A DNA stretch of 63,878 nt from an uncultured bacterium. GTDB taxonomy: Bacteria > Bipolaricaulota > Bipolaricaulia > UBA7950 > UBA9294. Each line of letters opens with the position of its first letter. The first letter of the stretch is position 1. Below the pieces are notes generated by a model, which saw nothing but the letters and a program-made list of their open reading frames with translations, made no database searches and was not told the DNA's origin. The position numbers were made by a program, and so were the translations under genes. Of the stretch, positions 45,828 through 63,341 are shown piece by piece. The stretch is taken from contig CAJVYM010000001.1 of NCBI GenBank assembly GCA_913009415.1, positions 1-63,878 of the forward strand, written 5' to 3'.

Positions 45828-45900
45828 GGGCGAATAGCTCAGTTGGGAGAGCGTTCGGGTCACATCCGAAAGGTCGCAGGTTCGAGCCCTGCTTCGCCCA
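45828..45900 (+). tRNA. tRNA-Val (anticodon CAC)
   Basis: A manual cloverleaf folds as follows. Acceptor GGGCGAA/TTCGCCC. D arm GCTC-AGTTGGGA-GAGC. Anticodon arm TTCGG-GTCACAT-CCGAA. T arm GCAGG-TTCGAGC-CCTGC. Discriminator A. CCA is not encoded. Confidence 0.9.
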
Positions 45901-45946
45901 TTTCTTTTCCTTGCAGCGGCGCACTCCACCATTTCCGATCGATACT

Positions 45947-47231: not shown

Positions 47232-48401
47232 ATGAAGATTCATGAATACCAGGCCAAGGAGTTATTCTCGTCCTTTTCCATCCCCGTTCCCGCGGGAAAG
47301 ATTGCCTCCACTCCGCGCGAAGCGAGTGAAGCGGCCGCCAGTCTCTCCGGACCGGTGGTGGTAAAGGCGCAGATCTACGCTGGTGGAAGGGGTAAGGCAG
47401 GGGGGGTGAGGCTCGTCGATTCGCCGCAGGAAGCAGAGGGTGCAGCGGAGAAGATCCTGGGGCACCCGCTCGTCACGCATCAGACCGGTCCCGCCGGGCG
47501 GATGGTAAATCGTGTCCTTGTCGAGGAGGCAACTGCTGTCAAGACGGAGATCTATCTTGGGATAACGATCGATCGGTCACGACGCCTCCCGGTGATCATG
47601 GCCAGCCCCGCCGGGGGGATGGAGATCGAGCAGATCGCCATGGATTCCCCCGAGAAGATCTTCAAGGAGTGGATCTTCCCCGAGATCGGCCTGCGTGGGT
47701 TTCAAGCGTACCGACTTGCCCTCAAGCTCGGGCTGAGCGCTCCTGAGACGAAGCAGGTGGCGAGGGTCATCAGCAACCTGTACCGCCTGTTCGTGGAGAG
47801 GGACTGCATGCTGGTGGAGATCAACCCGCTGGTCATCGATAGTGGTGGCAGTGTGATCGCGCTCGACGCGAAGATCAACTTCGACGACAGCGGCCTCTTC
47901 CGCCACCCGGAGATCGAGAAGCTGCGCGACCCCAACGAGGAGAACCCGCTCGAGCTGGAAGCAAAGAAGAACAACCTGAACTACATCAAGCTCGATGGAA
48001 ACGTCGGTTGCCTGGTCAACGGCGCGGGCCTGGCCATGGCCACGATGGACCTGATCAAGCTCGCTGGGGCGGCTCCCGCGAACTTCCTCGATGTTGGTGG
48101 AAGCGCGAATGAAGAGATGATCGAGAAGGGCTTTTCGCTCCTGCTGTCTGATCCCGATGTGCGGGCGGTGTTTATCAACATCTTCGGTGGGATCCTGCGA
48201 TGCGACATCCTCGCCCGCGGAATCGTCGCCGCAGTCAAGCGACTGGAAGTCAAGGTTCCGGTTATCGTGCGCCTGGAGGGGACGAACGTTGAACAGGGGA
48301 GGGAGATCCTCGCTAAGTCGGGGCTCGAGTTTCTCCGAGCGAGTGACCTCGATGAGGCCGCGACGCTCATCGCTCGTGCGCTGCAGGGGGAGGAGAAATG
48401 A
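47232..48401 (+). CDS. sucC: Succinate--CoA ligase beta subunit
   Basis: [12 protein letters not shown]... full-length SucC pattern. Confidence 0.95.
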
Positions 48402-49264
48402 GTATTCTAGTAGACAAGAACACGCGCGTATTGGTCCAGGGGATCACCGGTAGGGAAGGAAGCTTCCACACGCAGCAGATGCTCGCCTACGGGACGAATG
48501 TCGTTTGCGGTGTCACCCCGGGAAAGGGTGGACAGGAAGTACACGACGTTCCGGTGTTCAATACGGTCGCCGAGGCGATAATGGAGGCCAAGCCAAATGC
48601 GGCGATGATCTTCGTCCCTCCGAGATTCGCCGCCGACGCCATTCTTGAGGCGGCGGAGGGCGGAATCGAGCTTGTCATCTGCCTGACTGAAGGGATCCCG
48701 GTGAATGACATGGTACGCGTTCGCCGCTACCTCGATATCCACGGCACGAATCTGATCGGACCGAACACGCCGGGCGTCATCTCTCCGGGCAAGGCCAAGC
48801 TTGGGTTGATGGCTGGATACATCCATCGTGAGGGTGGCGTGGGGGTGATGTCCCGTAGCGGAACTCTCACTTACGAAGCGGTTAATCAGCTCTCGCAACG
48901 CGGGATTGGACAATCGACGTGCGTCGGGATCGGGGGGGATCCGATTGTCGGCCTGTCGTTCACCGACCTGCTTGCGCTGTTCGAGAAGGACGAACAGACC
49001 GAGGCCGTGGTGCTGATCGGGGAGATCGGCGGTAACGCCGAGGAGCAAGCGGCGCGTTACATCGCAGACAAGTTCACTAAACCGGTCGTTTCGTTCATCG
49101 CTGGGCGCACTGCGCCTCCGGGACGACGCATGGGGCACGCGGGAGCGATCGTCACCGGTGGTACGGGGACGGCGGCGGCGAAGATCGCTGCCTTAAGCGA
49201 TGCGGGAGTAACGGTTGTGGAGAGCCCGGCCCAGATTGGGTCTGCAATAGCTGCGCTCATCTGA
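48398..49264 (+). CDS. sucD: Succinate--CoA ligase alpha subunit
   Basis: [12 protein letters not shown]...SRSGTLTYE...MGHAGAI. Confidence 0.95.
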
Positions 49265-49275
49265 AGAAAATCACC

Positions 49276-49306
49276 TTGACACGTGACAAGAAAAGTGTTA
49301 TACAAT
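49276..49306 (+). promoter_or_regulatory. Strong sigma70-like promoter of the korC-to-malic-enzyme operon
   Basis: TTGACA (49276-49281), 17 nt, TATACA/TACAAT (49299-49306). Confidence 0.6.
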
Positions 49307-49321
49307 TTGCCTGCTGGTGTT

Positions 49322-49337
49322 TGTGATCGTGAGCACA
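49322..49337 (+). promoter_or_regulatory. CRP/FNR-type palindrome in the leader
   Basis: TGTGA-tcgtga-GCACA matches 9 of 10 positions of TGTGA-N6-TCACA. It lies just downstream of the -10. Confidence 0.3.
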
Positions 49338-49390
49338 AGCACAAACAACCTGCAATACACAAGTTGTCTGCGACAATAAGGAGCGAATCG

Positions 49391-49933
49391 ATGCGAATGG
49401 AGATTCGGTTTGCGGGTTTCGGTGGCCAAGGAGTGATCTCCGCCGCCAAAATCTCTGGACGAGCCGCTGCGATCAATGACAAGCTGAACGCTGTCCTAAC
49501 TCAATCGTACGGTCCAGAAGCACGCGGCGGTGCGTGTAACGCTAATGTAGTTATCTCGGAAGAGAGGATTGCTTACCCAGAAGTAACACTTCCTAATCTA
49601 TTAGTGATCCTATCTCAGGAAGCGTACACCACCTTTGGTTCAACTATCGCTCCGGGAGGAACGTTGATCGTCGATCAGGACCTGGTCGACGTGGGGGAGG
49701 TTCCAACTGGCGTTCACCTGTACACGGTGCCGGCCACGCAACTGGCGGAAGGGTTGGGAAACAGGATCGTCGCCAATGTGGTCATGCTGGGAGCGGTCGT
49801 CGCTATCACCGGTGTGGTGAGCAAGGATGCGATGTTGGAGTCGGTGCGCGCCTCGGTTCCCGCGCGGTTCCTCGAATTGAACGAGCGTGCGTTCGAGATC
49901 GGCTACGACTACGGGAGGAAGCTGAAATCATGA
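49391..49933 (+). CDS. korC: 2-oxoacid:ferredoxin oxidoreductase gamma subunit
   Basis: MRMEIRFAGFGGQGVISAAKI...QSYGPEARGG. An AAGGAG RBS precedes it. Confidence 0.85.
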   Translation: MRMEIRFAGFGGQGVISAAKISGRAAAINDKLNAVLTQSYGPEARGGACNANVVISEERIAYPEVTLPNLLVILSQEAYTTFGSTIAPGGTLIVDQDLVDVGEVPTGVHLYTVPATQLAEGLGNRIVANVVMLGAVVAITGVVSKDAMLESVRASVPARFLELNERAFEIGYDYGRKLKS

Positions 49934-51885
49934 GCCGAATCGGCGTCTTTGTTTGCCACTGTGGGATGAACATCGAGGAGACGGTCGACACGCGCTTGGT
50001 AGCGAAAACGCTGAAGGAATACCCGGGTGTCGTTCACGCTGAAGACTATGATTACATGTGCTCCGAGATCGGGCAGCAAAAGATCCGTGAGGCGATCGTG
50101 GAACACAATCTGGATGGAGTGGTTGTCGCTTCCTGCACGCCGAATATGCATCAAGAGACGTTCCGCAACGCGGCGGAAGAGGCGGGACTGAACCGATATC
50201 GTTTGGAAGTGGCTAACATCCGTGAGCAGGTCAGTTGGGTCCACTCCGATCGTCAGGTGGCGACGGAGAAGGCGATTCGCATGGCGCGCGCTGCGGTGGA
50301 AAAGGTGCGCGGCGACGATGACCTGGAGCCGATTGCCGTCGAACATGAGACGAGATGCCTCGTGATTGGCGGCGGGATCAGCGGTATTCAGGCGGCGGTC
50401 GATGTCGCCAACAGCGGACACGAGGTCATCCTGGTGGAGAAGGACCCGAGCATTGGCGGGCATATGGCTCAGCTGTCGGTCACATTCCCCACCCTGGATT
50501 GTGCTCAGTGCATCCTCACGCCGCGCATGGTGGAGGCGTCACGTCACCCAAACATTGAGCTTCTCACCTACAGTGAGGTCGTGAAAGTCGCCGGCTTCAT
50601 GGGAAACTACGAAGTGACGATCCGCAAGAACCCGACCTACGTCGATACGGACAAGTGCAACCTGTGCGACAAATGCTCCGAGGTTTGCCCGGTGAGCGTG
50701 AAAGAGGAATTCAACGAGGGCCTGTCCGAACGCAAGGCGATTTACCTGCCGTTTGAGCAGGCCATCCCCTCATCCTACGTGCTGGACGAGAACGCCTGCC
50801 TGGGAGTGAAGCCGATCCGTTGTGGTCTGTGCCAGGACGTGTGCGACGTCGGGGCGATCGATTACGATATGGCCCCCGAGATGATCACCCAAAAGGTAGG
50901 AGCGATCATCGTCGCCACCGGCTACGACCTGTACGATCCCAGCCACCTCACCGAGTACGGTGGAGGAAAGTATCCCGACGTTGTGACCTCACTTCAGTTT
51001 GAGCGAATGGTTCATCCATCCGGACCGATGAAGGGGCAGCTCCGTCGTCCCTCCGACGGGAGGCCAGTGAAGCGGATCGCCTTCGTCCACTGCGCTGGCT
51101 CGCGCGATCCGGGGCGACACAACCCCTATTGCTCCCGCATCTGCTGCACCTACACCGCCAAGCAAGCGCTTCTGTTCAAGAAGGGAGTGCCCGATGGTGT
51201 AGGAAGCGTGTTCTACATCGATATCCGCACCGATGGGAAGGGATATGAGGAGTTTGCGCAGGGGATCATCTCCGGCAAGCGTATTCGCTACATCCGGGGA
51301 AAAGTCGCCAAGGTGGTAGATGAAGGAGATCATCTCACCGCGTGGGGTGCGGACACCCTGAGCGGAAAGCGGATGGAGATCGATGTCGATCTGGTGGTGC
51401 TAGCCATGGCCATGGTCCCCAGCGAGGGGACGGCTGAACTGGCGAAGACGCTTCACATCAATGTTGACGAGAACGGCTTCCTCAAAGAGGCTCATCCCAA
51501 GCTGCGTCCGGTGGAGACAACAACCGCAGGAGTGTTCATCGCTGGTACCGCGCAGGGGCCGAAGGATATCCCCGATTCGGTGGCCCAGGGGAGCGCTGCG
51601 GCAGCGAAGGCGATCGCCATCCTGGCAGCCGATAAGCTATCTCACTCTCCCGAGGTGGCGGCGGTCAACGAGGAACTGTGCTCGGGGTGCGGAATCTGCG
51701 CGACCGTGTGTCCGTACGACGCAATCAAGATCGAGCGGTCGGGGATAGCGGTTGTGAACGACATCCTCTGCTTTGGGTGTGGCATCTGTGCCGCTTCCTG
51801 CCCTGCAGGAGCAATCGAGGTCAAGAACGAGCGGCACATGCAGATCGAAGAGATGATCGGTGTCGCGTTGGGAAGTGAGAAATGA
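49930..51885 (+). CDS. hdrA: Heterodisulfide reductase subunit A-like flavoprotein
   Basis: N-terminal VFVCHCGMNI, FAD fold VIGGGISGIQAA, several Cys clusters and a C-terminal 2x[4Fe-4S] region (CSGCGICATVCP, CFGCGICAASCP). Confidence 0.9.
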   Translation: MSRIGVFVCHCGMNIEETVDTRLVAKTLKEYPGVVHAEDYDYMCSEIGQQKIREAIVEHNLDGVVVASCTPNMHQETFRNAAEEAGLNRYRLEVANIREQVSWVHSDRQVATEKAIRMARAAVEKVRGDDDLEPIAVEHETRCLVIGGGISGIQAAVDVANSGHEVILVEKDPSIGGHMAQLSVTFPTLDCAQCILTPRMVEASRHPNIELLTYSEVVKVAGFMGNYEVTIRKNPTYVDTDKCNLCDKCSEVCPVSVKEEFNEGLSERKAIYLPFEQAIPSSYVLDENACLGVKPIRCGLCQDVCDVGAIDYDMAPEMITQKVGAIIVATGYDLYDPSHLTEYGGGKYPDVVTSLQFERMVHPSGPMKGQLRRPSDGRPVKRIAFVHCAGSRDPGRHNPYCSRICCTYTAKQALLFKKGVPDGVGSVFYIDIRTDGKGYEEFAQGIISGKRIRYIRGKVAKVVDEGDHLTAWGADTLSGKRMEIDVDLVVLAMAMVPSEGTAELAKTLHINVDENGFLKEAHPKLRPVETTTAGVFIAGTAQGPKDIPDSVAQGSAAAAKAIAILAADKLSHSPEVAAVNEELCSGCGICATVCPYDAIKIERSGIAVVNDILCFGCGICAASCPAGAIEVKNERHMQIEEMIGVALGSEK

Positions 51886-52307
51886 GTGACAATACGGGAT
51901 TTGAACCGAAGATAATTGCGTTTCTGTGTAAGTGGACAACCTACGCCGCCGCCGATCTGTGCGGGGTCAGCCGGATGCCCTATCCGCCCAACATCTCCAT
52001 CATCAGTGTCAACTGTACGGGTGAGGTGACGGCGGACATGATCCTATCCTCTCTTGCGAAGGGGGCCGACGGCATCCTTATCGGCGGCTGCCGGCCCGGC
52101 CACTGCCGCTACGAGGGTGGAAACATCAAGGGATCAAACCGGGTTTACCTGTTGAAGCGAGCTCTAAGAGAGTTCGGAGTTAACACCGAGAGAATCCGCG
52201 AGGTGGGTATAGCCGGTGCGCAGGGGTTGGTCTTCCAACGAGCGGTAGAAAAATTCACCGCCGATATCCGCGCCCTGGGACCGAGCCCGGTGGTGTCCAA
52301 TGTCTAA
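51882..52307 (+). CDS. mvhD: MvhD-like (methyl-viologen-reducing hydrogenase delta subunit family) protein
   Basis: KIIAFLCKW..YAAADLCG...GADGILIGGCRPGHCRYEGGN. Confidence 0.85.
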   Translation: MSDNTGFEPKIIAFLCKWTTYAAADLCGVSRMPYPPNISIISVNCTGEVTADMILSSLAKGADGILIGGCRPGHCRYEGGNIKGSNRVYLLKRALREFGVNTERIREVGIAGAQGLVFQRAVEKFTADIRALGPSPVVSNV

Positions 52308-53196
52308 TAAGAAAACGCTGGCGTTCTACGCGGCGAGCGGCTGCGGCGGTTGTAGCCAATCGTTGATGTTGAGCCCCAGCCTGGCCGCGATGCTGGAGGG
52401 CGTTGATATTGCCTTCTGGGCGACGCAGGGAGCTGATCTCACATCAGATGACATCTCTGGATTTGATGATAAGGGGATTGACGTCCTTATCTACGCAGGT
52501 CCACTACACGACGAAAGTTCCATAGACACTGCCAAGCTATTGCGCCGCAAGGCAAAGAGGATCGTTTCCTACGGGGCGTGCGCTCATCTCGGCGGCCTAT
52601 GTGGGCTGACAAACGTCTACCCCGGTGCGCAGTTGCGCGCACTATCTAAGACCGATGGAGAAGGATTCGTGCAGCCGCTCTCAGCGGTGATCGATGTCGA
52701 CTACATCCTCCCCGGGTGCCCTCCTCCAGAGGCGATGGTAACGCGGATGGTGGAAGAACTATTCCTCTCAGACGATGTACCAGAGATTGGAACCGTGTTT
52801 GCTAGCTCCAAGGGAGTTTGCGCGGAGTGCGGTCGTGAGCACGTACGCAATCCGCTCACTGCAATTCGAAGGTTCCACACCGATCCCCCCGATCCGAGTG
52901 TCTGCCTGATCGATCAGGGCTACATCTGCCTGGGACCGGTGACCAGGGGCGGCTGCGAGGCGGTCTGCTTGCGATCGAACCGTCCGTGCACCGGATGCGC
53001 TGGGCCGGTAGCGGGGGTACTCGACCAAGGGGGAGCGATCCTGCACGCGCTCGCCTCCCTCGTCTCCTTCTCGGGAGACGGTAATGAAGAAAAGGAGCAT
53101 CAGGTGCTCGATTCGATACCAGATGTCGTGGGTACGGCCTACAAGTATTCCGCCGCTTCCTCGCTTCTAAAAAAGAGGGTGAACGATGGCAAGTAA
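52300..53196 (+). CDS. NiFe-hydrogenase small-subunit-like FeS protein (MvhG-like)
   Basis: GCGGC, YGACAHLGG and LPGCPPP proximal-cluster motifs. Further Cys clusters: CAEC, CLGPVTRGGCEAVC, CTGCAGP. Confidence 0.8.
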   Translation: MSNKKTLAFYAASGCGGCSQSLMLSPSLAAMLEGVDIAFWATQGADLTSDDISGFDDKGIDVLIYAGPLHDESSIDTAKLLRRKAKRIVSYGACAHLGGLCGLTNVYPGAQLRALSKTDGEGFVQPLSAVIDVDYILPGCPPPEAMVTRMVEELFLSDDVPEIGTVFASSKGVCAECGREHVRNPLTAIRRFHTDPPDPSVCLIDQGYICLGPVTRGGCEAVCLRSNRPCTGCAGPVAGVLDQGGAILHALASLVSFSGDGNEEKEHQVLDSIPDVVGTAYKYSAASSLLKKRVNDGK

Positions 53197-54490
53197 CGTG
53201 ATCGCTCTCATCCCTCACTTCGACGAGGTGGTGCTGACGGATAACAATAAGCTCGCTGCCCGCGTTGCAATCCCGCAAACGGGCGATGGCTTTTCATCGT
53301 ACATGCGTGGCCGGCTGGCGGAGGATCTCCCGCTGTACGTTCAGCGGCTCGATACCCATTGCGCCGTCTCGCAGCACCTGGCCGCGGTGAGCGCGCTCGA
53401 TCGCTGTTACGGTGCGTCCCCGCCGGAGAAGGCGGTGAGGATCCGTCGGGCACTCGCCTATGCTGGTGTGTACTACCACCATCTGGAGCAGCTATTCTTG
53501 AGCCGACCGAGCGGAGATGTCGGTATTGCCGGCCTTGTTACTACCGATGAAACGTTGGCACCGACCGACATCTTTGAAACGCTCGGGCGCGCGCGTGATG
53601 TGATCGACATTCTGGGTGGACGCGGGATCACCCCCGAGTGCGGGATCGCTGGTGGAGTGACGAAGGGACCCACGGATGACGAGCTTCCGCGCGCCAAGGA
53701 TATCTCCTCGCATCTACTGGAGTTCGCTCTGCAGGCCGAGAAAGGGTTCCGAGGTTCGGGGGCGATATGGGTGACCGAGCATGATCTCAGCGTCCCTGCC
53801 TATTCTCTAGGTACAGTGAACGATGTGGCAGAGGCGAGCCTGTACGATGGAGCGCTTCGCATTGTCGATCCGGAAGGAACTGAAACCGCTGTGGGTGGCA
53901 CGAAGGAGATCCTCCCGATACTCCTAGCCTGGAAGGAGGATCTGCCGCTTCGCGTCGGTCCGCTCGCTCGACTGAACGTCGGTTCCGGTGCGTCCACCCC
54001 GCAGGCGAAAGCCCTTCAGAAGTACCTGTTCGACGCGCTTGGAGAGCCGCCGATCGACCGCGTTGCCGCCGGACACTGGGCGATGGTCATCGAGCTGGTG
54101 GAGTCAGCGGAGCTCTTGGTTTCGGCGCTAACTACGCTGGAAACCGGGGACTCTGTGATCAACTCCGCGTTAAATGATCCCTGTGAAGGGATTGCCGCGA
54201 TCGAAGGAGCGAGCGGCACGCTGCTCCATCACTACGTGATCGACGAGCAGGGGATCGTCCAGGAAGCGCGGATCGTATCCCCAGAGTCGCTGCGCGCAAC
54301 GGAGGTGAACGCCGCTCTATCTTCGGCCATCAGCGATGGCGCTTCCGGTGTAACGGAGGGCGTGATCGAGCAGATCGTGAGCGTAATCGGCTCTTACCAG
54401 CCGGCGTACGTTCCTTCTGCGGCGTTCCCACTTCGCATCACCCTGCACGACAAAGGCGGAAAGGTAGCGAAGGAATGGAGGAGACCATGA
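53186..54490 (+). CDS. NiFe-hydrogenase large-subunit-like protein lacking most Ni-Fe cysteine ligands (MvhA-like)
   Basis: RLDTHCAVSQHLAAVSALD aligns with RICGICDVQHHLAAAKAVD, so the first Cys is Asp. EGASGTLLHHYVID aligns with the EAPRGxLxH motif. The C-terminus SYQPAYVPSAAF stands in place of DPCxxCxxH. Confidence 0.7.
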   Translation: MASNVIALIPHFDEVVLTDNNKLAARVAIPQTGDGFSSYMRGRLAEDLPLYVQRLDTHCAVSQHLAAVSALDRCYGASPPEKAVRIRRALAYAGVYYHHLEQLFLSRPSGDVGIAGLVTTDETLAPTDIFETLGRARDVIDILGGRGITPECGIAGGVTKGPTDDELPRAKDISSHLLEFALQAEKGFRGSGAIWVTEHDLSVPAYSLGTVNDVAEASLYDGALRIVDPEGTETAVGGTKEILPILLAWKEDLPLRVGPLARLNVGSGASTPQAKALQKYLFDALGEPPIDRVAAGHWAMVIELVESAELLVSALTTLETGDSVINSALNDPCEGIAAIEGASGTLLHHYVIDEQGIVQEARIVSPESLRATEVNAALSSAISDGASGVTEGVIEQIVSVIGSYQPAYVPSAAFPLRITLHDKGGKVAKEWRRP

Positions 54491-54915
54491 CCAAGGCCAA
54501 GCAGACTGCGCAGGAGGAGTTCGCCCTCCTTGAGCTATCGATGGATGAGATCGTCGATAAGGTCGAGGAGCTGTCGGGCGAGAACGTATTCGACTGCTAC
54601 CAATGTGGCATGTGCTCTGCCGGATGCCCGCTTGCAGAAGAGATGGATCTCCTGCCAAATCAGGTGTTGCACGCACTGCAGATGAAGGATCCCGAGGCGA
54701 TGAGCGCAAACTCGATGTGGATCTGCGCCAGTTGCTACACGTGCCAAGTGCGCTGTCCAAAGGGAGTCGATCTTGCCAAGGTGATGGAGGCGATGCGTCA
54801 GATCTACCTACGCAAGAGGATGGACCACGTATCGCTCGATGGCCTCAGTCATCGGGAGATCCGTCGCCTGCCGCAGATCGCCATCGTCGCATCGTTTAGA
54901 AAGAAGACTGGGTGA
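54475..54915 (+). CDS. hdrC: Heterodisulfide reductase subunit C-like 2x[4Fe-4S] protein
   Basis: CYQCGMCSAGCP and CASCYTCQVRCP. Confidence 0.85.
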   Translation: MEETMTKAKQTAQEEFALLELSMDEIVDKVEELSGENVFDCYQCGMCSAGCPLAEEMDLLPNQVLHALQMKDPEAMSANSMWICASCYTCQVRCPKGVDLAKVMEAMRQIYLRKRMDHVSLDGLSHREIRRLPQIAIVASFRKKTG

Positions 54916-55796
54916 ATAAATTGGAGAAATTAACATATTTTCCTGGCTGTACGTTGAAGGACACCGCGAGCGATTTTGAGATCTCGGGGATGGCGGTGAT
55001 GGAGGCGCTCGGCTACGTTTTGGAAGAGCTGGAACGCTGGAACTGCTGCGGCACGGTCTTCTCCCTCACCGATGACGACCTGATGCATCAGATCGGGCCG
55101 GTGCGCGACCTGATCCGCGCCCAGGAGGCGGGTTCGGAGGAGATCATCACCCTCTGTTCGATGTGCTACGCCACGCTGAAGCGGTCGAGCCTATTCGTGA
55201 ATGGAAATCAGGAGAGGTTGGACAAGATAAACGCCTTCATGAACAAGGAGATCGACTACGAGGGGAAGGTGAGTGTACATCATCTGCTCGAGGTCCTGCG
55301 CGACCGCATCGGTTGGGAGAAGGTCGAGGAGAGGGTTACAAACCCACTGGAAGGCCTGTCCGTCGCCCCGTTCTACGGGTGCACGCTGCTGCGCCCACAG
55401 GAGATCGCGATCGATGATCCGGATGCTCCAACGGTGCTGCAGGACCTTACCCAGGCGCTGTGGGCGACTCCGATCGACTACGCATATTCCGTCGAGTGCT
55501 GCGGGGCGTACCAGGTGGTCGATCACCGCGACGTCGTCATCGAGCGGACACACCGCATCATGAGCGCGGCGCGGAGAGCGGGGGCTGATGTCATTGTCAC
55601 CAGTTGTCCCCTCTGCCACTTTAATTTGAGCGATACTCAGAAAGAACTTGTCCGGACGATCCCCGATTACGAGGAGATGCCGATTATCTACTTCACCCAG
55701 CTGATGGCGCTCGGGTTCGGCGTCGAGGCAGGAAAGATTCCCGCCTCGCTCAAGGCCAAAGTGAAGCGACTTCAGACGGTCAAGGGGGAGGGATGA
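54912..55796 (+). CDS. hdrB: Heterodisulfide reductase subunit B-like protein (two CCG domains)
   Basis: YFPGCTL, WNCCGT, ECCGAY and SCPLCHFN. Confidence 0.85.
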   Translation: MNKLEKLTYFPGCTLKDTASDFEISGMAVMEALGYVLEELERWNCCGTVFSLTDDDLMHQIGPVRDLIRAQEAGSEEIITLCSMCYATLKRSSLFVNGNQERLDKINAFMNKEIDYEGKVSVHHLLEVLRDRIGWEKVEERVTNPLEGLSVAPFYGCTLLRPQEIAIDDPDAPTVLQDLTQALWATPIDYAYSVECCGAYQVVDHRDVVIERTHRIMSAARRAGADVIVTSCPLCHFNLSDTQKELVRTIPDYEEMPIIYFTQLMALGFGVEAGKIPASLKAKVKRLQTVKGEG

Positions 55797-55797
55797 G

Positions 55798-56517
55798 ATG
55801 ATAAGTGAGAAACAGGAGAAGGAAATGATCCGCATCCATGTCATGGGCAAGACCTACGAGGTCCCTGCCGGTCTGACGATTATGGATGCGATGGAGTACG
55901 CCGGCTACCGGTTCACCCGCGGCGCGGGCTGCCGATCGGGGTTCTGCGGGGCATGTTCCACCGTCTACCGCTACGAGGGGGATTACCGGCTGCAGTTCGC
56001 CCTCGCCTGCCAGGAGACGGCGGCCGATGGGATGTACCTGGTGCAGCTTCCGTTCACCCCGGCTCCCCGCGCCAAGTACGACATCGAGAAGATAAATCTC
56101 AAGGAGAACGTCCTCCTCCAATACTATCCGGAGATCGCGCGCTGCGTCTCCTGCAACACGTGCACCAAGGCCTGTCCGCAGGATATTGAGGTGATGGACT
56201 ACATTCAAGCGGCCCTGCGCGGGGACATCGCGAAGACGGCGGAGCTATCGTTTGACTGTATCCAGTGCGGCCTGTGCAGCATGCGCTGCCCGGCGGACAT
56301 CAAGCACTACCACATGGCTCAGATGGCGCGGCGGATCTATGGGCGCTACATGTCCCCCGTCCCGCAACACCTGGAGAATCGCCTGCAGGAGATCGCCGAT
56401 GGTGCCTTCGATGCCGAGCTGGACAAGTTGGTGAACATGAGTCGGGAGGAGCTGGAGGAAGCGTACGCCGCCCGAGTGAGCGAGGAAGCATCTGCAGGGA
56501 GTGAGAGAAGTGAGTAA
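55798..56517 (+). CDS. Succinate dehydrogenase/fumarate reductase iron-sulfur-subunit-like protein
   Basis: 2Fe-2S motif GCRSGFCGACS...C, then CVSCNTCTKACP and CIQCGLCSMRCP. Confidence 0.8.
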   Translation: MISEKQEKEMIRIHVMGKTYEVPAGLTIMDAMEYAGYRFTRGAGCRSGFCGACSTVYRYEGDYRLQFALACQETAADGMYLVQLPFTPAPRAKYDIEKINLKENVLLQYYPEIARCVSCNTCTKACPQDIEVMDYIQAALRGDIAKTAELSFDCIQCGLCSMRCPADIKHYHMAQMARRIYGRYMSPVPQHLENRLQEIADGAFDAELDKLVNMSREELEEAYAARVSEEASAGSERSE

Positions 56518-58171
56518 GAAGGGATTAATTGGCGGGTACCCCGCGTACATGCGGGAGTCGATCGAGAAGGTGGAGGCGACCAGGAGCAGGCGGCTGAAGG
56601 AAGGTCCACCGCCCCCGATGAGCCCGAAAGAGAGGGAAGCGATCCTGGAGCGCAACCACCCCGATTACAAGCCGGAAGGAAAGAGGAAACTGGCGCTCGG
56701 TCCATCGGCGGGAGAACCAGTTCCGCATGAAGTAGCTGACATCATCGAATCGCATTCGGTAATCGATCCGCGCGCCGTCGATCTGTCTAAGGTGGACTAC
56801 GACGTAGACGTCCTGGTGATCGGCGGAGGCGGGGCGGGAACCGTAGCGGCAATCTTCGCCCACGAGCAAGGGATCCCGGTCGACCGCATCCTGATCGTCA
56901 CTAAACTGCGCCACGGGGACTGCAACTCGATCATGGCCCAGGGCGGGATCCAGGCCGCCGATCGGCCGCAGGATTCACCGGCGATCCACTACCTGGATGT
57001 GATGGGCGGCGGACACTACGCCAACAAGCCGGAACTGGTGCGGGCATTGGTGAACGACGCGCCGGGGATCATCCGCTGGCACGAGGACATCGGAGTGATG
57101 TACGACAAGGTCGATGGCGAGTACGTAGAGGCGCACGGCGGTGGGACGTCGCGCATGCGTATGCACTCAGCCAAGGACTACACGGGAAAGGAGACGTTCA
57201 ACTCCATCCGCGATCAGGCACGCAACCTGGATATCCCGGTCCTCGAGTTCTTCCCGGCGGTGGAGTTGCTCCTCGATAAGCGTGGGCACGCTGCAGGGGC
57301 GGTGGTATACAACATTGAGACGGAGGAGTATCGCATCATCCGGGCCAAGGCGACCGTTCTTGCCACCGGCGGATTCGGACGCATTCACATCCAAGGGTTT
57401 CCCACCACTAACCATTACGGTGCGACCGCCGATGGCCTCGTCATGGCCTACCGCGCCGGGGCGAACATCATCGACATGGACTCGGTGCAGTACCACCCGA
57501 CTGGTGTTGCCTACCCGGCAGCGATCCTGGGCCAATTGGCCACGGAGAAGCTGCGCACCCAGGGGGCGATGCCGGTGAACGTGGATGGTGAGGCGTTCGT
57601 CTTCCCGCTCGAACCGCGCGACGTGGAGTCGTCGGCGATCATCGAGGAATGCTGGGTGAAGAACAACGGGATCGAGACGCCGAGTGGTCTGCGTGGGGTG
57701 TGGCTCGATACACCGATGATCGATCAGGTTCACGGCAAAGGGACGCTCAAGAAGGCACTGGCCGCGATGTGGACGATGTGGCACCGGCACGACATCGACA
57801 TCACCGTCGATCCGGCGCTGGTCTATCCGACGCTGCACTATCAGAACGGCGGTGTGGAGATCGACGCCAACGGCTACACCAAGGTTCCCGGGCTGTTCGC
57901 CGGTGGAGAGTGTGAGGGTGGAGTGCACGGTAAGAACCGGTTGATGGGTAACTCCCAGCTCGATTACAACGTGTTCGGTCGTCGCGCCGGGATTTCCGCC
58001 GGCAAGTGGGCGAAGAGCGCGAAGGTTGACGAATTGTCGCTTCAGCATGTGATCGACTATGAGAAGGAGCTGGAGAGAGCGGGGATCGATACCGATCGCA
58101 AGGCGCCGATCATCCTCCCCGACTACCGGCCACAGGCCGTGCGTGAGCACACCCTAGGGCATCTGCTATGA
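56501..58171 (+). CDS. Fumarate reductase/succinate dehydrogenase-type flavoprotein with an N-terminal extension of about 100 aa
   Basis: DVLVIGGGGAGTVAA, IMAQGGIQA (no His at the position used for covalent FAD), VQYHPTG, and GLFAGGECEGGVHGKNRLMGNS. The start is ambiguous (GTG 56501/56510). Confidence 0.8.
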   Translation: MREVSKKGLIGGYPAYMRESIEKVEATRSRRLKEGPPPPMSPKEREAILERNHPDYKPEGKRKLALGPSAGEPVPHEVADIIESHSVIDPRAVDLSKVDYDVDVLVIGGGGAGTVAAIFAHEQGIPVDRILIVTKLRHGDCNSIMAQGGIQAADRPQDSPAIHYLDVMGGGHYANKPELVRALVNDAPGIIRWHEDIGVMYDKVDGEYVEAHGGGTSRMRMHSAKDYTGKETFNSIRDQARNLDIPVLEFFPAVELLLDKRGHAAGAVVYNIETEEYRIIRAKATVLATGGFGRIHIQGFPTTNHYGATADGLVMAYRAGANIIDMDSVQYHPTGVAYPAAILGQLATEKLRTQGAMPVNVDGEAFVFPLEPRDVESSAIIEECWVKNNGIETPSGLRGVWLDTPMIDQVHGKGTLKKALAAMWTMWHRHDIDITVDPALVYPTLHYQNGGVEIDANGYTKVPGLFAGGECEGGVHGKNRLMGNSQLDYNVFGRRAGISAGKWAKSAKVDELSLQHVIDYEKELERAGIDTDRKAPIILPDYRPQAVREHTLGHLL

Positions 58172-58455
58172 AGGGTGAGACCGTGGAAAAGGAAAGCGTG
58201 GGCAAGCGCTGGAAGACGAAAAATGGATCGATCACCATCGTCGATGACCTGTGCAAGGAGTGCGGTCTGTGCATCGAATTCTGCCCGATCCAGGTCCTAG
58301 GAAGATCAGAGCACTTTAACGAGAAGGGGTATCACTATCCGGAGATGCTCGCACCGGAGAAGTGCGTAAACTGCGGATACTGCCAGCTTCTCTGCCCGGA
58401 TTTTGCTATCTGGAGCGAACGCGATGATAAACAGGAAGGTGAAAGGGATGAGTAA
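58168..58455 (+). CDS. korD: 2-oxoacid:ferredoxin oxidoreductase delta subunit (2x[4Fe-4S])
   Basis: CKECGLCIEFCP and CVNCGYCQLLCP. Confidence 0.85.
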   Translation: MKGETVEKESVGKRWKTKNGSITIVDDLCKECGLCIEFCPIQVLGRSEHFNEKGYHYPEMLAPEKCVNCGYCQLLCPDFAIWSERDDKQEGERDE

Positions 58456-59596
58456 GAAGGATATCCTTGCCGGGGAACATTTCCTGAACGGCGATGTCGC
58501 CTGCGCCGAGGGGGCGATAGCCGCCGGTTGTCGCCTGTTCGCCGGTTACCCGATCACCCCGCAATCGGAGATCACGGAGACGATGGCCTATCGCCTACCG
58601 AAGATCGGCGGCTATTTCCTTCAGATGGAGGACGAATTGGCATCGATCGCCGCCGTCCTCGGCGGGGCGTGGGGAGGGATGAAGGCGATGACCGCTACCT
58701 CCGGTCCCGGGTTCTCTCTGATGATGGAGAACCTCGGCCTGGGAATCATGACCGAGACTCCGTGCGTGATCGTCGATGTGCAGCGCGGTGGGCCGAGCAC
58801 CGGTCTTCCCACAGCGACATCTCAGGGTGACATGATGCAGGCGCGCTGGGGGACGCATGGTGACCACGAGATCATCGCCTACGCCCCCGCCTCGCCGCAG
58901 GAGATGTTCGATCAGACGGTGAAGGCGTTCAATCAATCGGAGCGCTTCCGCCAACCGGTACTGGTGATGGCCGATGAGGTGGTGGGGCACATGATGGAAC
59001 GGGTGATCATCGATCCCGACAAGATCGAGATCTACCCGAGGCGAAAACCGAGCGTCCCCTACGAGAAATTCCTCCCGTACAAAGGGGGGCCAGATATGGT
59101 ACCGGAGATGGCCTGTGCCGGCGAGGGATACCGGGTGCATGTAACGGGATTGACACACGATGAGCGCGGCTACCCCGACCTGTCGGTGGAGAGCCAGGAC
59201 AAATTGATGCACCGCCTGATAGGAAAGATCCGGGATAATGCCGATCAGATCATCGAAGTGGAGGAGGAGAACATCCATGGAGCGGACGTCGTCCTCGTCA
59301 CCTACGGGATCGCTGCGCGTACGGCTCTGCGCGCGATGGAACTAGCAGAGGAGAAGGGGATCAAGGTCGGGATGTTGCGCCTGATCACGGTGTGGCCGTT
59401 TCCACTAAAGGAGGTGCGCAAGATCGCCGGTGATGTGAAGGGATTGATCGTCCCGGAGCTGAACCTGGGGCAGATCGTGCGCGAAGTGGAAAGGGCCGCT
59501 GCCGGGCAGTGCCCGGTGCGCCTCGTCGGCCACGCCGGTGGGGGGTTGCATCGACCGGAAAACATCCTCAGTGCGATCGAGGAGGTGGCACGATGA
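58448..59596 (+). CDS. korA: 2-oxoacid:ferredoxin oxidoreductase alpha subunit
   Basis: FLNGDVACAEGAIAAGCRLFAGYPITPQSEI... Confidence 0.9.
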   Translation: MSKKDILAGEHFLNGDVACAEGAIAAGCRLFAGYPITPQSEITETMAYRLPKIGGYFLQMEDELASIAAVLGGAWGGMKAMTATSGPGFSLMMENLGLGIMTETPCVIVDVQRGGPSTGLPTATSQGDMMQARWGTHGDHEIIAYAPASPQEMFDQTVKAFNQSERFRQPVLVMADEVVGHMMERVIIDPDKIEIYPRRKPSVPYEKFLPYKGGPDMVPEMACAGEGYRVHVTGLTHDERGYPDLSVESQDKLMHRLIGKIRDNADQIIEVEEENIHGADVVLVTYGIAARTALRAMELAEEKGIKVGMLRLITVWPFPLKEVRKIAGDVKGLIVPELNLGQIVREVERAAAGQCPVRLVGHAGGGLHRPENILSAIEEVAR

Positions 59597-60477
59597 GACA
59601 CGTAGCGACCAAACCGGAACCGCAGATCGTGAAGGACGTGCACCATCCGCTGGAGCACTATTTTCGAAGCGAGCGCCTCCCGCACATCTGGTGCTCGGGG
59701 TGCGGTCTGGGGACAGCGATGTCCTGCCTGGCGGCGGCGTTTGGGCATCTCAAACTCGATGTAGATGATGTCTCCGTCGTCTCGGGGATCGGCTGTTCCG
59801 GCCGCCTCGCCGGCTACATGCGCCCTGACTCCTACCATACGACGCACGGACGCGCCCTCCCGTTCGCTACCGGACTGCGCGTGGCGCTGGAGAAGACCAA
59901 GCCAGGGCACAAGGTAGTGGTGTTCAGCGGGGACGGCGATCTGTTCTCCATTGGGGGGAACCACTTCATCCAAGCTGCTCGCCGCAACATCGACTTAAGT
60001 GTGTTCTACGTCAACAACTTTAATTACGGAATGACCGGAGGGCAGGTGGGACCGACGACACCGATGGGAGCGAAGGGAACGACGGCCCCGTACGGGATGT
60101 TCGAGCACCCGTTCAACCTTCCCTACCTCGCTGCATCGTCGGGGGCGCCGTACGTCGCACGCTGGACGACGCTACACGTGCATCGCCTGCAAAAGGCGAT
60201 GGAGGAAGCGATCCAGAAGAAGGGGTTCACCTTCGTCGAGATCATCGCCCCCTGTCCGACAAACTATGGCCGGAGAAACGGGCTTCCCACCGGGCTCGAT
60301 GAGATGCGCTACTACCGCGAGGAAGCGGTGATCGAGAACTTCGCCGATCCCAAGGATGCGGAGATCATACCCGGCAAACCGTTCATTGTCGGTACTTTTG
60401 TCGACGAAGATAAACCCGACTACCTGGAAATCTACCAGAAATTTGTAGCCGATCACTTCGAGGTGGCAGCAAAGTGA
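59593..60477 (+). CDS. korB: 2-oxoacid:ferredoxin oxidoreductase beta subunit (TPP-binding)
   Basis: WCSGCGLG...GIGCSGR...SGDGDLFSIGGNH. Confidence 0.9.
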   Translation: MRHVATKPEPQIVKDVHHPLEHYFRSERLPHIWCSGCGLGTAMSCLAAAFGHLKLDVDDVSVVSGIGCSGRLAGYMRPDSYHTTHGRALPFATGLRVALEKTKPGHKVVVFSGDGDLFSIGGNHFIQAARRNIDLSVFYVNNFNYGMTGGQVGPTTPMGAKGTTAPYGMFEHPFNLPYLAASSGAPYVARWTTLHVHRLQKAMEEAIQKKGFTFVEIIAPCPTNYGRRNGLPTGLDEMRYYREEAVIENFADPKDAEIIPGKPFIVGTFVDEDKPDYLEIYQKFVADHFEVAAK

Positions 60478-61334
60478 ACGATGAAGAGCTAATTCGGCAA
60501 CTGGTCGCTGCAATCCGCAAGGCGGAGACGGTCCTTGGAAAAGACGTCGTTCTCGCGCTGAAGGAGGCGAGCGAGGCCGAGAGCGGCACGGCGCGTGTAC
60601 AGTTGGAGACAATGCTTGAAAACGTCACTGCCGCGCGCGACGGATCAATCCCCATGTGTCAGGACACGGGGATTCAGACGTTTATCGTGCGCGTTGGCGC
60701 GAAGTACCCCGGGCTATCATCACTGCGGTCTCAGATCATCCAAGCGGTGCGCCGCGCGACGGTCGAGATCCCGCTTCGTCCAAACACAGTGCATCCGTTC
60801 ACCGGGGAGAACCCGGGCGACAACGTCGGAGAGCACGTCCCCTACATCAGCTGGGAGATCGTCGATGGCGATCGCTGCGTCATCGAACTCCTGCCCAAGG
60901 GCGGGGGGAGCGAGAACTGCGCCGCGCTGGGGATGCTCTCTCCCGGGGTGGGGATCAAGGGAGTGAAGCGATTCATCGTCGATCATGTAGTCGGCTGCGC
61001 GGGAAAGCCGTGCCCGCCAGGGATCGTCGGCGTGGGAATCGGCGGCGGCGCCGACCTGTGCCTCAAGCTAGCCAAGCTCTCCCTGCTGCGCCCAGTCGGT
61101 GCTCGCCACCCTGAAGAGAACGTTGCTTCGCTCGAGGTGGAGTTGCGCGACCTGATCAACGGTAGCGGCATCGGGCCGATGGGGATGGGCGGCAAGACGA
61201 CCTGCCTCGATGTGCACATCGAGTACGCACACCGGCACCCGGCATCGCTTCCGGTGGGGATCGTCTACCAGTGCTGGGCCGATCGGCGAGCCCGCGTGAC
61301 GATCGATGCCGGCGGGAAGATCGAGGTGATCTGA
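60474..61334 (+). CDS. Class I (Fe-S) fumarate hydratase, alpha/N-terminal subunit
   Basis: IPMCQDTGIQTF...LPKGGGSEN. Confidence 0.9.
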   Translation: MNDEELIRQLVAAIRKAETVLGKDVVLALKEASEAESGTARVQLETMLENVTAARDGSIPMCQDTGIQTFIVRVGAKYPGLSSLRSQIIQAVRRATVEIPLRPNTVHPFTGENPGDNVGEHVPYISWEIVDGDRCVIELLPKGGGSENCAALGMLSPGVGIKGVKRFIVDHVVGCAGKPCPPGIVGVGIGGGADLCLKLAKLSLLRPVGARHPEENVASLEVELRDLINGSGIGPMGMGGKTTCLDVHIEYAHRHPASLPVGIVYQCWADRRARVTIDAGGKIEVI

Positions 61335-61335
61335 T

Positions 61336-61926
61336 ATGAAACGGATACTACAAACTCCCATCTCCGAACAGGAGGCGCGCGACCTGCACGTGGGGGATGT
61401 GATATACATCACCGGGGCGATGTTTACCGCCCGCGACGAGGCGCACCTGAAGATGCTCGAGGAGGGGGAACCGTTCCCCGTCTCCGGCCTTGCCCTCTAT
61501 CACTGCGGCCCGGTGGTAAGAAAAGATACTGCCGGCTGGAAGATCGTCTCCGCTGGCCCGACGACGTCGGCGCGGATGGAGATCTTCGAAGACCGTTTCT
61601 TGGAGAGGTTTCCCGTGCGCGCCATCATCGGCAAGGGTGGAATGGGGGAGAAGACACTGGCCGCACTGCGTAAGGTGGGGGCCGTCTACACCCACTACAC
61701 CGGAGGAGCGGGGGCGCTCGCCGCGCAAGCGATCAGCGATATCACGGACGTTCATTGGCTCTCGGAACTGGGGATGCCGGAGGCAGTGTGGGTCCTCTCC
61801 GTCAAGGAGTTTGGCCCCTTGACCGTAACTATGGATGCCCACGGAGAGAGCCTGTACACTACTCTGGGTGAAACCGTACACGAGAACATGCAGGCGATAC
61901 ACGATCGGATCGAAAGGGGGGAGTGA
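61336..61926 (+). CDS. Class I fumarate hydratase, beta/C-terminal subunit
   Basis: GDVIYITGAMFTARDEAH...IIGKGGMG. Confidence 0.9.
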   Translation: MKRILQTPISEQEARDLHVGDVIYITGAMFTARDEAHLKMLEEGEPFPVSGLALYHCGPVVRKDTAGWKIVSAGPTTSARMEIFEDRFLERFPVRAIIGKGGMGEKTLAALRKVGAVYTHYTGGAGALAAQAISDITDVHWLSELGMPEAVWVLSVKEFGPLTVTMDAHGESLYTTLGETVHENMQAIHDRIERGE

Positions 61927-63284
61927 TGGGCGAGGAGAGACTTAGCGTAGAAGAGATGAAGCGCAGAGCGGAGATTCCAGCCAAGAAGGCACCGTCGTGG
62001 CACGCCTTCTACCGCGGGAAGATCGAGACGACGCTCAAGTGCGCGGTGAGTGAAGTGAGTGATTTTGGAATCTGGTACACCCCGGGCGTTGCTGCTCCGT
62101 GCAAGGAGATCGAGGCCGACCAGAGCAAGGTGTTCGACTACACCAACAAGGCGAACACCGTTGCCGTCGTCTCCGACGGCTCGCGCGTCCTTGGCCTGGG
62201 GAACATCGGCCCGCACGCGGGGCTCCCGGTGATGGAGGGGAAGGCGCTCCTGTTCAAGTACTTGGGCGGGGTGGGAGCGTTCCCGATCATGCTCGACACT
62301 CAGGATCCGGAGGAGATCATCCAGGCGGTGAAGTGGATCGCTCCCGGGTTCGGCGGCGTGAACCTGGAGGACTTCGCTAACCCCAAGTGCTTCTACATCC
62401 TCGACCGTCTGCGCAAGGAGCTCGACATCCCGGTCTGGCACGATGACCAGCAGGGGACGGCGTCGATCACCCTCGCCGGTGTAATCAATGCTCTCAAGGT
62501 CGTGGGCAAGGACATAAACAAGGTCACCTACTGCGTGATCGGGACCGGTGCGGCGAACATCGCCTTCGTGCGCATTCTCCTTTCTGCCGGTGTCCCCGAG
62601 GGGAACGTGATCATGGTCGACAGCAAGGGGATCCTCCATCCCGGCCGCGAAGACCTGGAGAAGAACCAGGACAAGAACCCGTACAAGTGGCACTACGCGC
62701 AGGTGACGAACGCCGAGCACCGCACCGGCGACATGACCGAGGCGATCGCGGGAAGCGACGTGTTGATCGCCGCATCTAAACCCGGGCCAGGGACGATCAA
62801 GCAAGAATGGCTGCGCGCGATGAACAAAGACGCCATAGCGTTCATCATGGCCAACCCCACCCCGGAGATCTGGCCATGGGAGGCCAAGGAAGCGGGAGTG
62901 CGCATCGTCGGCACGGGAAGATCGGACTTCTCAAACCAGGTGAACAACTCCATCGGCTTCCCGGGGATCTTCCGCGGAACGCTCGACGTGTTCGCCAAGA
63001 CGATCACCGACGAGATGGCGATCGCCGCCGCGTACGCCATCGCCGAGACGGCGGAGAAGAAGGGAATTAACGACAACTACATCGTCCCCACAATGATGGA
63101 GACAGAGGTGTTCGTAAACGAGGCGGTCGCTGTCGGAATGAAGGCGATCGAACAGGGGATCGCCCGCCGCATCCTCACCGCGGACGAACTGCGCCACGAG
63201 GCAGAGACGAAGATTCGCCACGCACAAGCGGAGACAAAGATCCTCATGGACGCCGGCCACATCGCCCCTCCGCCGCGTGATTAA
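61923..63284 (+). CDS. NAD(P)-dependent malic enzyme (short form)
   Basis: YTPGVAAPC...[16 protein letters not shown]...GVNLEDF...HDDQQGTA. Confidence 0.9.
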
Positions 63285-63312
63285 CCAAGACAGATTAAGT
63301 ACAAAGATCATA

Positions 63313-63341
63313 AAGCCGGCTCGCAGGCCGGCTTTCCTTTG
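63313..63341 (+). terminator. Rho-independent terminator closing the operon
   Basis: AAGCCGGC-tcgcag-GCCGGCTT followed by a T-rich tail. Confidence 0.7.

Follow-up and report, generated by a model that had tools for sequence, protein, structure and literature searches.

In a 63,878-nucleotide stretch of DNA from an uncultured bacterium of the Bipolaricaulota (contig CAJVYM010000001.1, hereafter the window) we analysed mvhA*, a gene for a cysteine-less relative of MvhA, the large subunit of group 3c [NiFe] hydrogenases. Judged from its sequence, MvhA* is a true homologue of MvhA that is predicted to be unable to bind the canonical Ni-Fe centre, and appears as a catalytically dead, nickel-free descendant that would no longer activate H2. 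The gene stands next to that of an intact iron-sulfur (FeS) small subunit, MvhG, in an operon that also encodes a heterodisulfide reductase-type module (Hdr), a fumarate reductase (Frd) and a 2-oxoacid:ferredoxin oxidoreductase (Kor). We hypothesize, and think it probable, that MvhA* survives as a structural partner for the folding of MvhG and as a shield of its proximal cluster, with fumarate reduction driven by reduced ferredoxin or another redox protein.

The assignment to MvhA rests on sequence and fold together. The top Protein Data Bank (PDB) match of MvhA* is 5odc_F, the MvhA chain of the Hdr-Mvh complex (E=1.4e-27), followed by VhuA and then by the large subunit of the bifurcating HydABCSL enzyme and by HoxH. 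An AlphaFold model built from 26 input sequences (pLDDT 90.1, pTM 0.92) again gave 5odc_F as its top Foldseek match, with a TM score of 0.79. The family models capture the protein only in part: Pfam PF00374 (NiFeSe_Hases) covers amino acids (aa) 35-100 rather than the full length, at 29.7 bits, and the NCBIfam VhuA equivalog scores 93.7 bits, below its cut-off of 800. No complex I, group 4 or NuoD-type chain occurs among the PDB matches up to E=1, all of which belong to groups 1-3, and a survey of open reading frames (ORFs) and Pfam domains found no membrane subunits in the operon; an affiliation with the NuoD-like group 4 was rejected on these grounds. A selenocysteine-containing or split subunit of the VhuA/VhuU kind was also rejected, since no stop interrupts the frame and the protein has its C-terminal region, which contains no cysteine. 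The reading frame starts with ATG, 5 nt downstream of a AGAGGGTG Shine-Dalgarno sequence.

An earlier note, made from the letters of this DNA without database searches, had proposed an MvhA-like large subunit unable to hold a NiFe centre. The best match to 5odc_F and the degraded ligand motifs bear this out; no alignment restored the missing cysteines, and the protein grouped with group 3 hydrogenases only. In HMMER and MAFFT alignments against true MvhA, the N-terminal ligand motif (L1) RLDTHCAVSQH pairs residue by residue with RICGICQVAHH, and the first cysteine is replaced by Asp56, as the note had read it, with Cys59 retained. The RIEGH-type motif is likewise absent as claimed, with PHFDE and a 5-residue deletion in its place, and the C-terminal motif (L2) DPCxxCxxH has become QPAYVPSAA, without either cysteine. 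In all, three of the four Ni-Fe cysteines are lost in the window protein, together with the catalytic Arg and the Glu of RxEGH. The EAPRGxLxH-like block does align, as EGASGTLLH, with Ser343 in place of its catalytic Arg. The note needs correction on the overall length, which is not fully retained: four or five loops are deleted relative to true MvhA (473-486 aa), so that MvhA* is some 40-50 residues shorter. Nor is Cys59, the last ligand cysteine left, conserved in relatives.

Could the protein still be a hydrogenase whose metal is held by unconventional ligands? The L1 segment of the window has a D-x-H-C-x4-H pattern, in which Asp56, His58, Cys59 and His64 might form an alternative site. We consider this extremely improbable and rejected the site because its residues are unconserved among the relatives of MvhA* described below: Asp56 is Gly in four clusters, His58 also varies, and in P0013-16, P0125, P0126 and L016 Cys59 is missing or replaced by Ser or Ile. 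Moreover, the protein has lost both L2 ligands as well as the catalytic Arg and Glu, and hycI, the maturation endopeptidase gene of intact operons, is absent here. Across the clade there is no invariant Cys column at all; the position equivalent to the catalytic Arg is variable, and the former Cys3 and Cys4 positions are occupied by Ala407 and Pro410, both invariant.

A word-indexed search of 5.8 billion proteins returned 16 clusters at 90% identity that form this clade, with members 44-100% identical and 428-435 aa long; after these come genuine MvhA and HoxH proteins, with 28-30% identity. When 1.84 billion representatives were searched exhaustively with a profile, only three from the clade were recovered (520-770 bits) and, after a gap, one more distant member at 208 bits. 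All members, as a set, lack the L1 and L2 cysteine motifs, and the cysteine-less state recurs in more than 10 independent contigs. Those relatives that were placed in reference genomes all belong to metagenome-assembled genomes (MAGs) of Candidatus Bipolaricaulota (Acetothermia), some of them deposited as Thermotogae; a genomic look-up of the window protein itself returned no record. The clade alignment has 81 invariant columns, and its most conserved segments (GRLAEDxPLYVQR, GGRGxTPERxxPGG and QPAxxP) are those that surround the active site and the proximal cluster in real enzymes.

The naming of these sequences deserves a remark. JGI calls such genes 'F420-non-reducing hydrogenase large subunit'. 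Some taxonomic labels conflict with near-identical Bipolaricaulota relatives, namely those of P0021 (Caldiserica bacterium, NCBI) and of L010, L011 and L013 ('uncultured Thermotogae'), and are probably binning or naming errors. In L001, korB (16408-17273) and maeA (18722-20049) are each split into two calls, both genes being whole in L002 and L003; as L001-L003 encode identical MvhA*, the splits are probably assembly frameshifts rather than biology.

We compared rates of evolution across the loci. In L004-L012, the sole pair with unsaturated synonymous sites (dS 0.34), the ratio of nonsynonymous to synonymous substitution rates (dN/dS) is 0.206 for mvhA*, 0.077 for mvhG and 0.013-0.060 for the other six genes. 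Other locus pairs give 0.17-0.31 for mvhA*, with synonymous sites saturated between most clade members. Cross-locus protein identity is 44-67% for MvhA* and 64-77% for MvhG, as against 80-94% in most loci for HdrA, HdrB, HdrC, MvhD, FrdA and FrdB; in a Bipolaricaulota lineage with an intact hydrogenase, described below, the same comparison gives 86% for MvhA, 82% for MvhG and 89% for HdrA. MvhA* is the fastest-evolving protein of the operon, at 3-10 times the rate of its neighbours. Because dN/dS is about 0.2 and because of the contrast in identity with the intact lineage, we conclude that mvhA* is under purifying selection and maintained, with relaxed constraint: the constraint on MvhA* fell several-fold after the loss of the catalytic site, and MvhG was only mildly affected. 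A pseudogene or an assembly artefact was rejected on the strength of dN/dS and of the same state in independent assemblies.

L016, a deeper member of the clade, is already cysteine-less (RIDNNSSVSQH at L1, SYQPNLSPEE at L2) and is followed by hdrC-hdrB-frdB-frdA. It keeps a loop of about 25 residues that is deleted in the window clade, which implies a stepwise reduction of MvhA*. One could read this progressive loss of loops, from L016 through the window clade to P0013-16, together with the rapid protein evolution, as the decay of a relic in which mvhA*, and perhaps mvhG, is functionless and is carried by the operon structure toward deletion. We find this quite unlikely, given a dN/dS well under 1 and the complete absence of frameshifts or stops in the 16 clusters and L016 (37-100% identity). 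Saturation of synonymous sites in most pairs means that the retention is ancient; the start and stop codons of mvhA* overlap both neighbouring genes, and the invariant columns of the clade also speak against decay.

The partner subunits give a different picture from the large subunit. MvhG aligns over its full length with 5odc_E, with each cluster cysteine in register, so that the claim that the small subunit keeps all its cluster motifs holds: the 12 cluster cysteines and one further cysteine are invariant (13/13) in 9/9 orthologues. Cysteine conservation was counted over nine orthologues for MvhG, MvhD and FrdB and over ten for HdrB and HdrC (Table 1). HdrA has the same cysteine columns as the intact-hydrogenase lineage, and the window sequence aligns to that lineage without gaps of 4 residues or more; a new NAD(P)H-binding domain in HdrA, as a substitute for the H2 input, was not found, nor does the operon contain a replacement dehydrogenase or any other NAD(P)H-binding module. 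The Hdr subunits score below their NCBIfam cut-offs (HdrA2 794/1100, HdrB 164/345 and HdrC 64/160 bits). The four-subunit Kor set is complete, with POR in gamma, two [4Fe-4S] domains in delta, POR_N and PFOR_II in alpha and TPP_enzyme_C in beta. The earlier note had seen no maturation protease gene adjacent to mvhA*; we found neither such a gene nor hyp genes across the whole 64-kb window, and the intact relatives have hycI at that very place.

These genes form a 17-gene unit (47232-63284) with the order sucC-sucD-korG-hdrA-mvhD-mvhG-mvhA*-hdrC-hdrB-frdB-frdA-korD-korA-korB-fumA-fumB-maeA, which is identical in every related contig of sufficient length. The operon is translationally coupled: at 15 of the 16 junctions the genes overlap or are separated by 1 nt, and mvhA* shares 11 nt with mvhG and 16 nt with hdrC. 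The Mvh-Hdr module partners a fumarate reductase and a 2-oxoglutarate:ferredoxin oxidoreductase, not a heterodisulfide system of the methanogen type; the action of Kor on 2-oxoglutarate is what we infer from its context with sucCD and frdAB. The bacterium is not expected to make coenzyme M or coenzyme B.

The direction of the pathway is suggested by FrdA. Its top family match, TfrA, gives 292 bits against a family cut-off of 718. The His44 of E. coli FrdA, which carries covalent flavin adenine dinucleotide (FAD), aligns with Asn142, invariant in all orthologues; the catalytic His of HPTG, both Arg and the second His are conserved in all of them. In this family non-covalent FAD permits fumarate reduction and not efficient succinate oxidation, as in E. 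coli His44 variants and soluble fumarate reductases. Because FrdA lacks the covalent-FAD His, we read the operon as a reductive branch from malate to 2-oxoglutarate. Residues 1-99 of FrdA (56501-56800) form an N-terminal extension of about 100 residues without Pfam or PDB match, probably common to its orthologues, as these, including that of the intact operon, have 553 aa and the window protein 556; the Hdr module may dock on this extension.

The operon might instead run oxidatively, from 2-oxoglutarate through succinate, fumarate and malate to pyruvate, with Hdr confurcating electrons of succinate and reduced ferredoxin onto a mid-potential acceptor via MvhD-MvhG-MvhA*. A malic enzyme is present rather than a malate dehydrogenase, Bipolaricaulota have been reconstructed as sugar and amino-acid fermenters (PMC6092417), and soluble confurcation would permit succinate oxidation without a respiratory chain. 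Even so, with Asn142 in place of the His and with no identifiable acceptor site, we regard this direction as unlikely.

The origin of the window operon is indicated by other members of the phylum. P0019 and P0022, which are among the nearest true MvhA proteins, lie in operons (L019 and L022) that match that of the window from korG to fumA, with homologous subunits. L019 (3894-17444) is complete, with the order korG-hdrA-mvhD-mvhG-mvhA-hycI-hdrC-hdrB-frdB-frdA-korDAB-fumA; L022 (6042-12629) agrees with it through hdrC, after which a truncated gene marks the end of the contig. Their MvhA has 483 aa, as compared with 434 in the window, and carries RICGVCPEAHH and DPCLACATH; directly 3' of it lies the gene of a HycI-type maturation endopeptidase, in a place where the window has no such gene. 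Relatives of this MvhA are named Bipolaricaulota, Bipolaricaulaceae or Acetothermia, and in the cultured strain J31 MvhA is 88% identical to that of L019. Between the window and the intact operon, identity is 52-65% for HdrA (60%), HdrB, HdrC, FrdA (59%), FrdB, KorA (64%), KorB and FumA, but only 39% for MvhG and 28% for MvhA*. Because the gene order matches and intact MvhA and hycI occur in the same phylum, we conclude that the window form arose within the phylum from an H2-using Mvh-Hdr-Frd-Kor system, losing the metal ligands and the protease gene. The intact operon itself is a candidate H2-dependent bifurcating fumarate reductase, predicted from its genes and apparently undescribed. A small 23S_rRNA_IVP gene (PF05635) lies between hdrC and hdrB in L019 (10418-10795) and is absent from the window operon.

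The profile search also yielded two further and larger families of cysteine-less MvhA-like proteins, A and B, in Desulfobacterota-type bacteria. With clusters drawn at 90% identity, family A comprises at least 290 of them; those members that carry a taxonomic label come from Desulfomonilaceae, Desulfomonile or 'Deltaproteobacteria' MAGs, and the annotation is hypothetical protein at NCBI and hydrogenase large subunit at JGI. The family has WQExP, RILxILSPAHH and ESPxGLIxH, and the protein ends before L2; the L1 equivalent of family B reads AVSSVSAVAHH. In both families the gene lies directly 3' of genes for MvhG (with all cluster motifs), MvhD and a GltD-HdrA fusion of about 1120 aa (HdrL), and HdrB follows in 3/3 loci. 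In the longer loci, L015 and L017, HdrC, a ferredoxin and a molybdopterin oxidoreductase are also encoded downstream, as is an aldehyde:ferredoxin oxidoreductase-type protein in L015; Frd and Kor are not the neighbours here, unlike in the window.

Neighbour-joining with bootstrap placed the window clade together with families A and B (92/100; 200/200). We distrust this grouping. The raw distances of the window clade to A and B (2.05 and 2.09) exceed those to intact group 3c (1.67-1.75), families A and B keep the loops and lose the C-terminus after L2 and have no indel in common with the window clade, and the gene order of the latter matches the intact Bipolaricaulota operon. Long-branch attraction between fast-evolving families is the likely cause. 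As indels and gene context differ, cysteine loss in the window clade and in families A and B was probably independent. Scattered group 3-like large subunits also have partly degenerate L1 or L2 motifs (P0129, P0131, P0132, P0137, P0143, P0154, P0206, P0233, P0241, P0258 and P0272), for example NICGIAPSAHH with DPWLPY, or RIWDISPASHH. They suggest that other lineages, too, have repeatedly seen the Ni-Fe site erode, though some may be truncated gene calls.

How might such a system work? In the ancestral form, as the intact relatives suggest, H2 would have been oxidised at MvhA and the electrons bifurcated at the HdrA flavin, one branch running through HdrCB and FrdBA to fumarate (about +30 mV) and the other to ferredoxin (about -500 mV), to be consumed by 2-oxoglutarate synthase. 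In the window lineage the H2 input would have been lost, and reduced ferredoxin or another redox protein most likely docks on HdrA or on the MvhG arm. MvhA* would cap the proximal cluster of MvhG and let MvhG fold, and the three [4Fe-4S] clusters of MvhG would remain, with MvhD, the electron arm on HdrA. Subunits HdrABC, MvhD, MvhG, MvhA* and FrdAB would together make up a soluble fumarate reductase complex, serving a reductive C4-to-C5 branch with malic enzyme, fumarase, succinyl-CoA synthetase and 2-oxoglutarate:ferredoxin oxidoreductase. The earlier note had left the electron donor of the module open, and on this we agree.

Several points weigh against a purely structural MvhA*. An MvhG/MvhA* pair of that kind could have been lost, as it has been in many Hdr systems that have MvhD only, and its long retention with every cluster ligand, repeated in two families, hints at a function in electron transfer or on a substrate. 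Close to the former active site and to the interface with the proximal cluster are polar residues specific to the clade, namely the invariant Tyr51, Gln53, Thr149 and Glu151 and the nearly invariant Arg152; this set could constitute a new site. Finally, a fumarate reductase fed by ferredoxin only would waste about 0.5 V and leave a bifurcating flavoprotein pointless.

Emptied hydrogenase sites have been put to other uses, by quinone in NuoD of complex I and by polysulfide at the cluster in MbsL of MBS. By analogy, loss of the Ni-Fe centre and of loops may have opened a site by the proximal cluster of MvhG to a new substrate or cofactor, in which case a new bifurcating fumarate reductase would have MvhG-MvhA* as its real donor or acceptor module. 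The ligands of the proximal, medial and distal clusters of MvhG are all invariant, the best-conserved segments of MvhA* are those around the active site and the proximal cluster, loops are deleted relative to true MvhA, and families A and B again pair a dead large subunit with an intact small one; the reduction of sulfur at a cluster in MBS (PMC7684303) offers a precedent. On the other hand, the old ligand and Arg positions are variable or hold invariant Ala and Pro, without a conserved polar constellation, the fastest evolution in the operon would be unusual for a new catalytic site, and the gene context suggests no candidate substrate. We therefore hold such a pocket to be possible but doubtful. 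Equally tentative is the wider proposal that MvhG-MvhA* is a new redox module whose emptied pocket, or the proximal [4Fe-4S] cluster thereby exposed, acts on a substrate other than H2 or holds a new cofactor, and which supplies or drains mid-potential electrons in a bifurcating fumarate reductase of a previously unknown type; on this view the module would have arisen at least twice, given its recurrence in the HdrL-linked families.

The favoured structural role of MvhA* can be set beside known systems. The methanogen MvhADG-HdrABC complex (5ODC) provides the top matches of MvhA* and MvhG and has the subunit set HdrA, MvhD, MvhG, MvhA, HdrC and HdrB in common with the window, where the partners keep all FeS ligands; in contrast to it, the window lacks the Ni-Fe ligands, the catalytic Arg and Glu and the protease gene, and its module goes together with FrdAB and Kor. 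That large subunits may lack the cysteines is textbook knowledge for group 4 descendants (NuoD/Nqo4, MbxL/MbsL and Ehr), which likewise have a ligand-less large subunit beside a small subunit with an intact proximal cluster. The window system differs from these in being soluble, in belonging to another hydrogenase group and in lacking conserved replacement residues like those of the Tyr/His quinone site. Methanothermobacter handles fumarate with thiol:fumarate reductase and Mvh-Hdr as two enzymes. Its TfrAB resembles the window system in that TfrA is the top family match of FrdA, although far below the cut-off, in predicted non-covalent FAD and in coupling CCG chemistry to fumarate reduction, but the FeS and CCG functions that are fused in TfrB are split over FrdB, HdrC and HdrB in the window.

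Two bacterial systems offer further parallels. HylA of the Hyl formate dehydrogenase is an [FeFe]-hydrogenase homologue without H-cluster motifs that is thought to serve electron transfer (PMC6085437). It is likewise a dead hydrogenase subunit kept in a flavin-based bifurcating complex; the [FeFe] fold, however, is unrelated to [NiFe], and FeS clusters are still present in HylA, while not a single cysteine is conserved in MvhA*. In tubeworm symbionts and Thioflavicoccus, korABCD and tfrAB are interspersed with flxABCD-hdrABC, and direct electron delivery to both has been proposed (PMC6315080); there the donor module is the NADH dehydrogenase FlxABC, in place of which the window has MvhG and a dead MvhA. 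The earlier note knew of no equivalent among Mvh-type enzymes. Our search of the open-access full-text literature turned up neither a cysteine-less Mvh-type subunit nor an Mvh-Hdr-Frd operon, yet equivalents do exist, in families A and B. Bifurcating-enzyme surveys retain only MvhA sequences with Cys motifs, and published Bipolaricaulota reconstructions treat Mvh-Hdr as an H2-recycling hydrogenase.

Table 1. Features of the mvhA* operon in the window and genes of the two other cysteine-less families (locus given before the positions).
Feature	Position	Strand	Basis
sucC and sucD, succinyl-CoA synthetase	47232..49264	+	ORFs; Pfam ATP-grasp_2, Ligase_CoA, CoA_binding in orthologous loci
korG, gamma subunit of predicted 4-subunit 2-oxoacid:ferredoxin oxidoreductase	49391..49933	+	Pfam POR; orthologues 180 aa
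hdrA, FAD/FeS subunit, candidate bifurcating flavoprotein	49930..51885	+	NCBIfam HdrA2, E=1.6e-238
mvhD, [2Fe-2S] adaptor	51882..52307	+	Pfam FlpD, E=2.7e-40; five invariant Cys
mvhG, small subunit, three [4Fe-4S] ligand sets intact	52300..53196	+	5odc_E, E=1.6e-43
mvhA*, cysteine-less MvhA-like large subunit, 434 aa	53186..54490	+	sequence and fold match to 5odc_F
RxEGH remnant PHFDE, 5-residue deletion	53213..53227	+	alignment
L1 equivalent RLDTHCAVSQH, aa 54-64	53345..53377	+	alignment; Cys1 = Asp56, Cys59 kept here
EAPRGxLxH equivalent EGASGTLLH; catalytic Arg to Ser343	54203..54229	+	alignment
L2 equivalent QPAYVPSAA, aa 405-413; both Cys lost	54398..54424	+	alignment
hdrC, 2x[4Fe-4S]	54475..54915	+	Pfam and NCBIfam; eight invariant Cys
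hdrB, two CCG domains	54912..55796	+	Pfam CCG x2; TIGR03288, E=6e-48; ten invariant Cys
frdB, FeS subunit, [2Fe-2S] and 2x[4Fe-4S]	55798..56517	+	Pfam Fer2, Fer4; twelve invariant Cys
frdA, flavoprotein, predicted non-covalent FAD	56501..58171	+	top NCBIfam match TfrA, E=5.9e-87
korD, korA, korB, delta, alpha and beta subunits	58168..60477	+	Pfam families
fumA and fumB, class I fumarate hydratase	60474..61926	+	Pfam Fumerase, Fumerase_C in orthologous loci
maeA, malic enzyme, last operon gene	61923..63284	+	Pfam malic, Malic_M
terminator-like GC-rich hairpin closing the operon	63312..63335	+	ten-pair stem, then T-rich tail
family A genes	L015:8001-9311; L018:5787-7091		
family B gene	L017:8001-9407		

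Elsewhere in the window, the first 4 kb have a G+C content of 0.47-0.48, compared with 0.55-0.61 in the remainder. Positions 1-5600 carry genes for a Schlafen/AlbA_2 protein (527-1456), a family-less ORF (1566-2207) and a HipA-type kinase (4299-5555), and may represent a mobile or defence islet. The ORF at 20716-24042 (1108 aa) matches LptF/LptG only over residues 51-405, the remaining ~700 having no family match, and overlaps the FolD ORF (23906-24934); it has either a large unexplained extension or is over-extended. A 346-aa ORF without Pfam match (30741-31781) is followed by one of 718 aa (32012-34168) with a weak porin-like match only. A tRNA-Val (CAC) at 45827-45901 lies within the 5' end of the listed epimerase ORF (45821-46957), whose true start is placed downstream of the listed one because the L005 orthologue has 327 aa.

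That hydrogenase large subunits can lose their metal site is known; what appears to be new is such a loss in a soluble, Hdr-linked group 3c protein and in the context of fumarate reductase and 2-oxoglutarate synthase. From the evolution of complex I it is familiar that a Ni-Fe site can disappear while its FeS partner stays; to this the soluble, Hdr-linked group 3 enzymes now add further cases, probably from more than one event. There are consequences for annotation, as genes of this kind pass for Mvh hydrogenases in pipelines and metabolic reconstructions and surveys filtered for Cys motifs silently drop the proteins; in lineages with mvhA*, contrary to the automatic annotation, H2 is predicted not to enter the pathway at this point. 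The Mvh-Hdr-fumarate reductase-Kor system appears to fuse the two-enzyme route of methanogens (Tfr and Mvh-Hdr) into one thiol-independent unit, and a single phylum harbours both an intact, H2-using form and a nickel-free form of it. Because a cultured relative, strain J31, has an intact MvhA, the ancestral reaction is directly testable, and the mvhA* lineages provide a natural experiment on the non-catalytic role of the hydrogenase large subunit.

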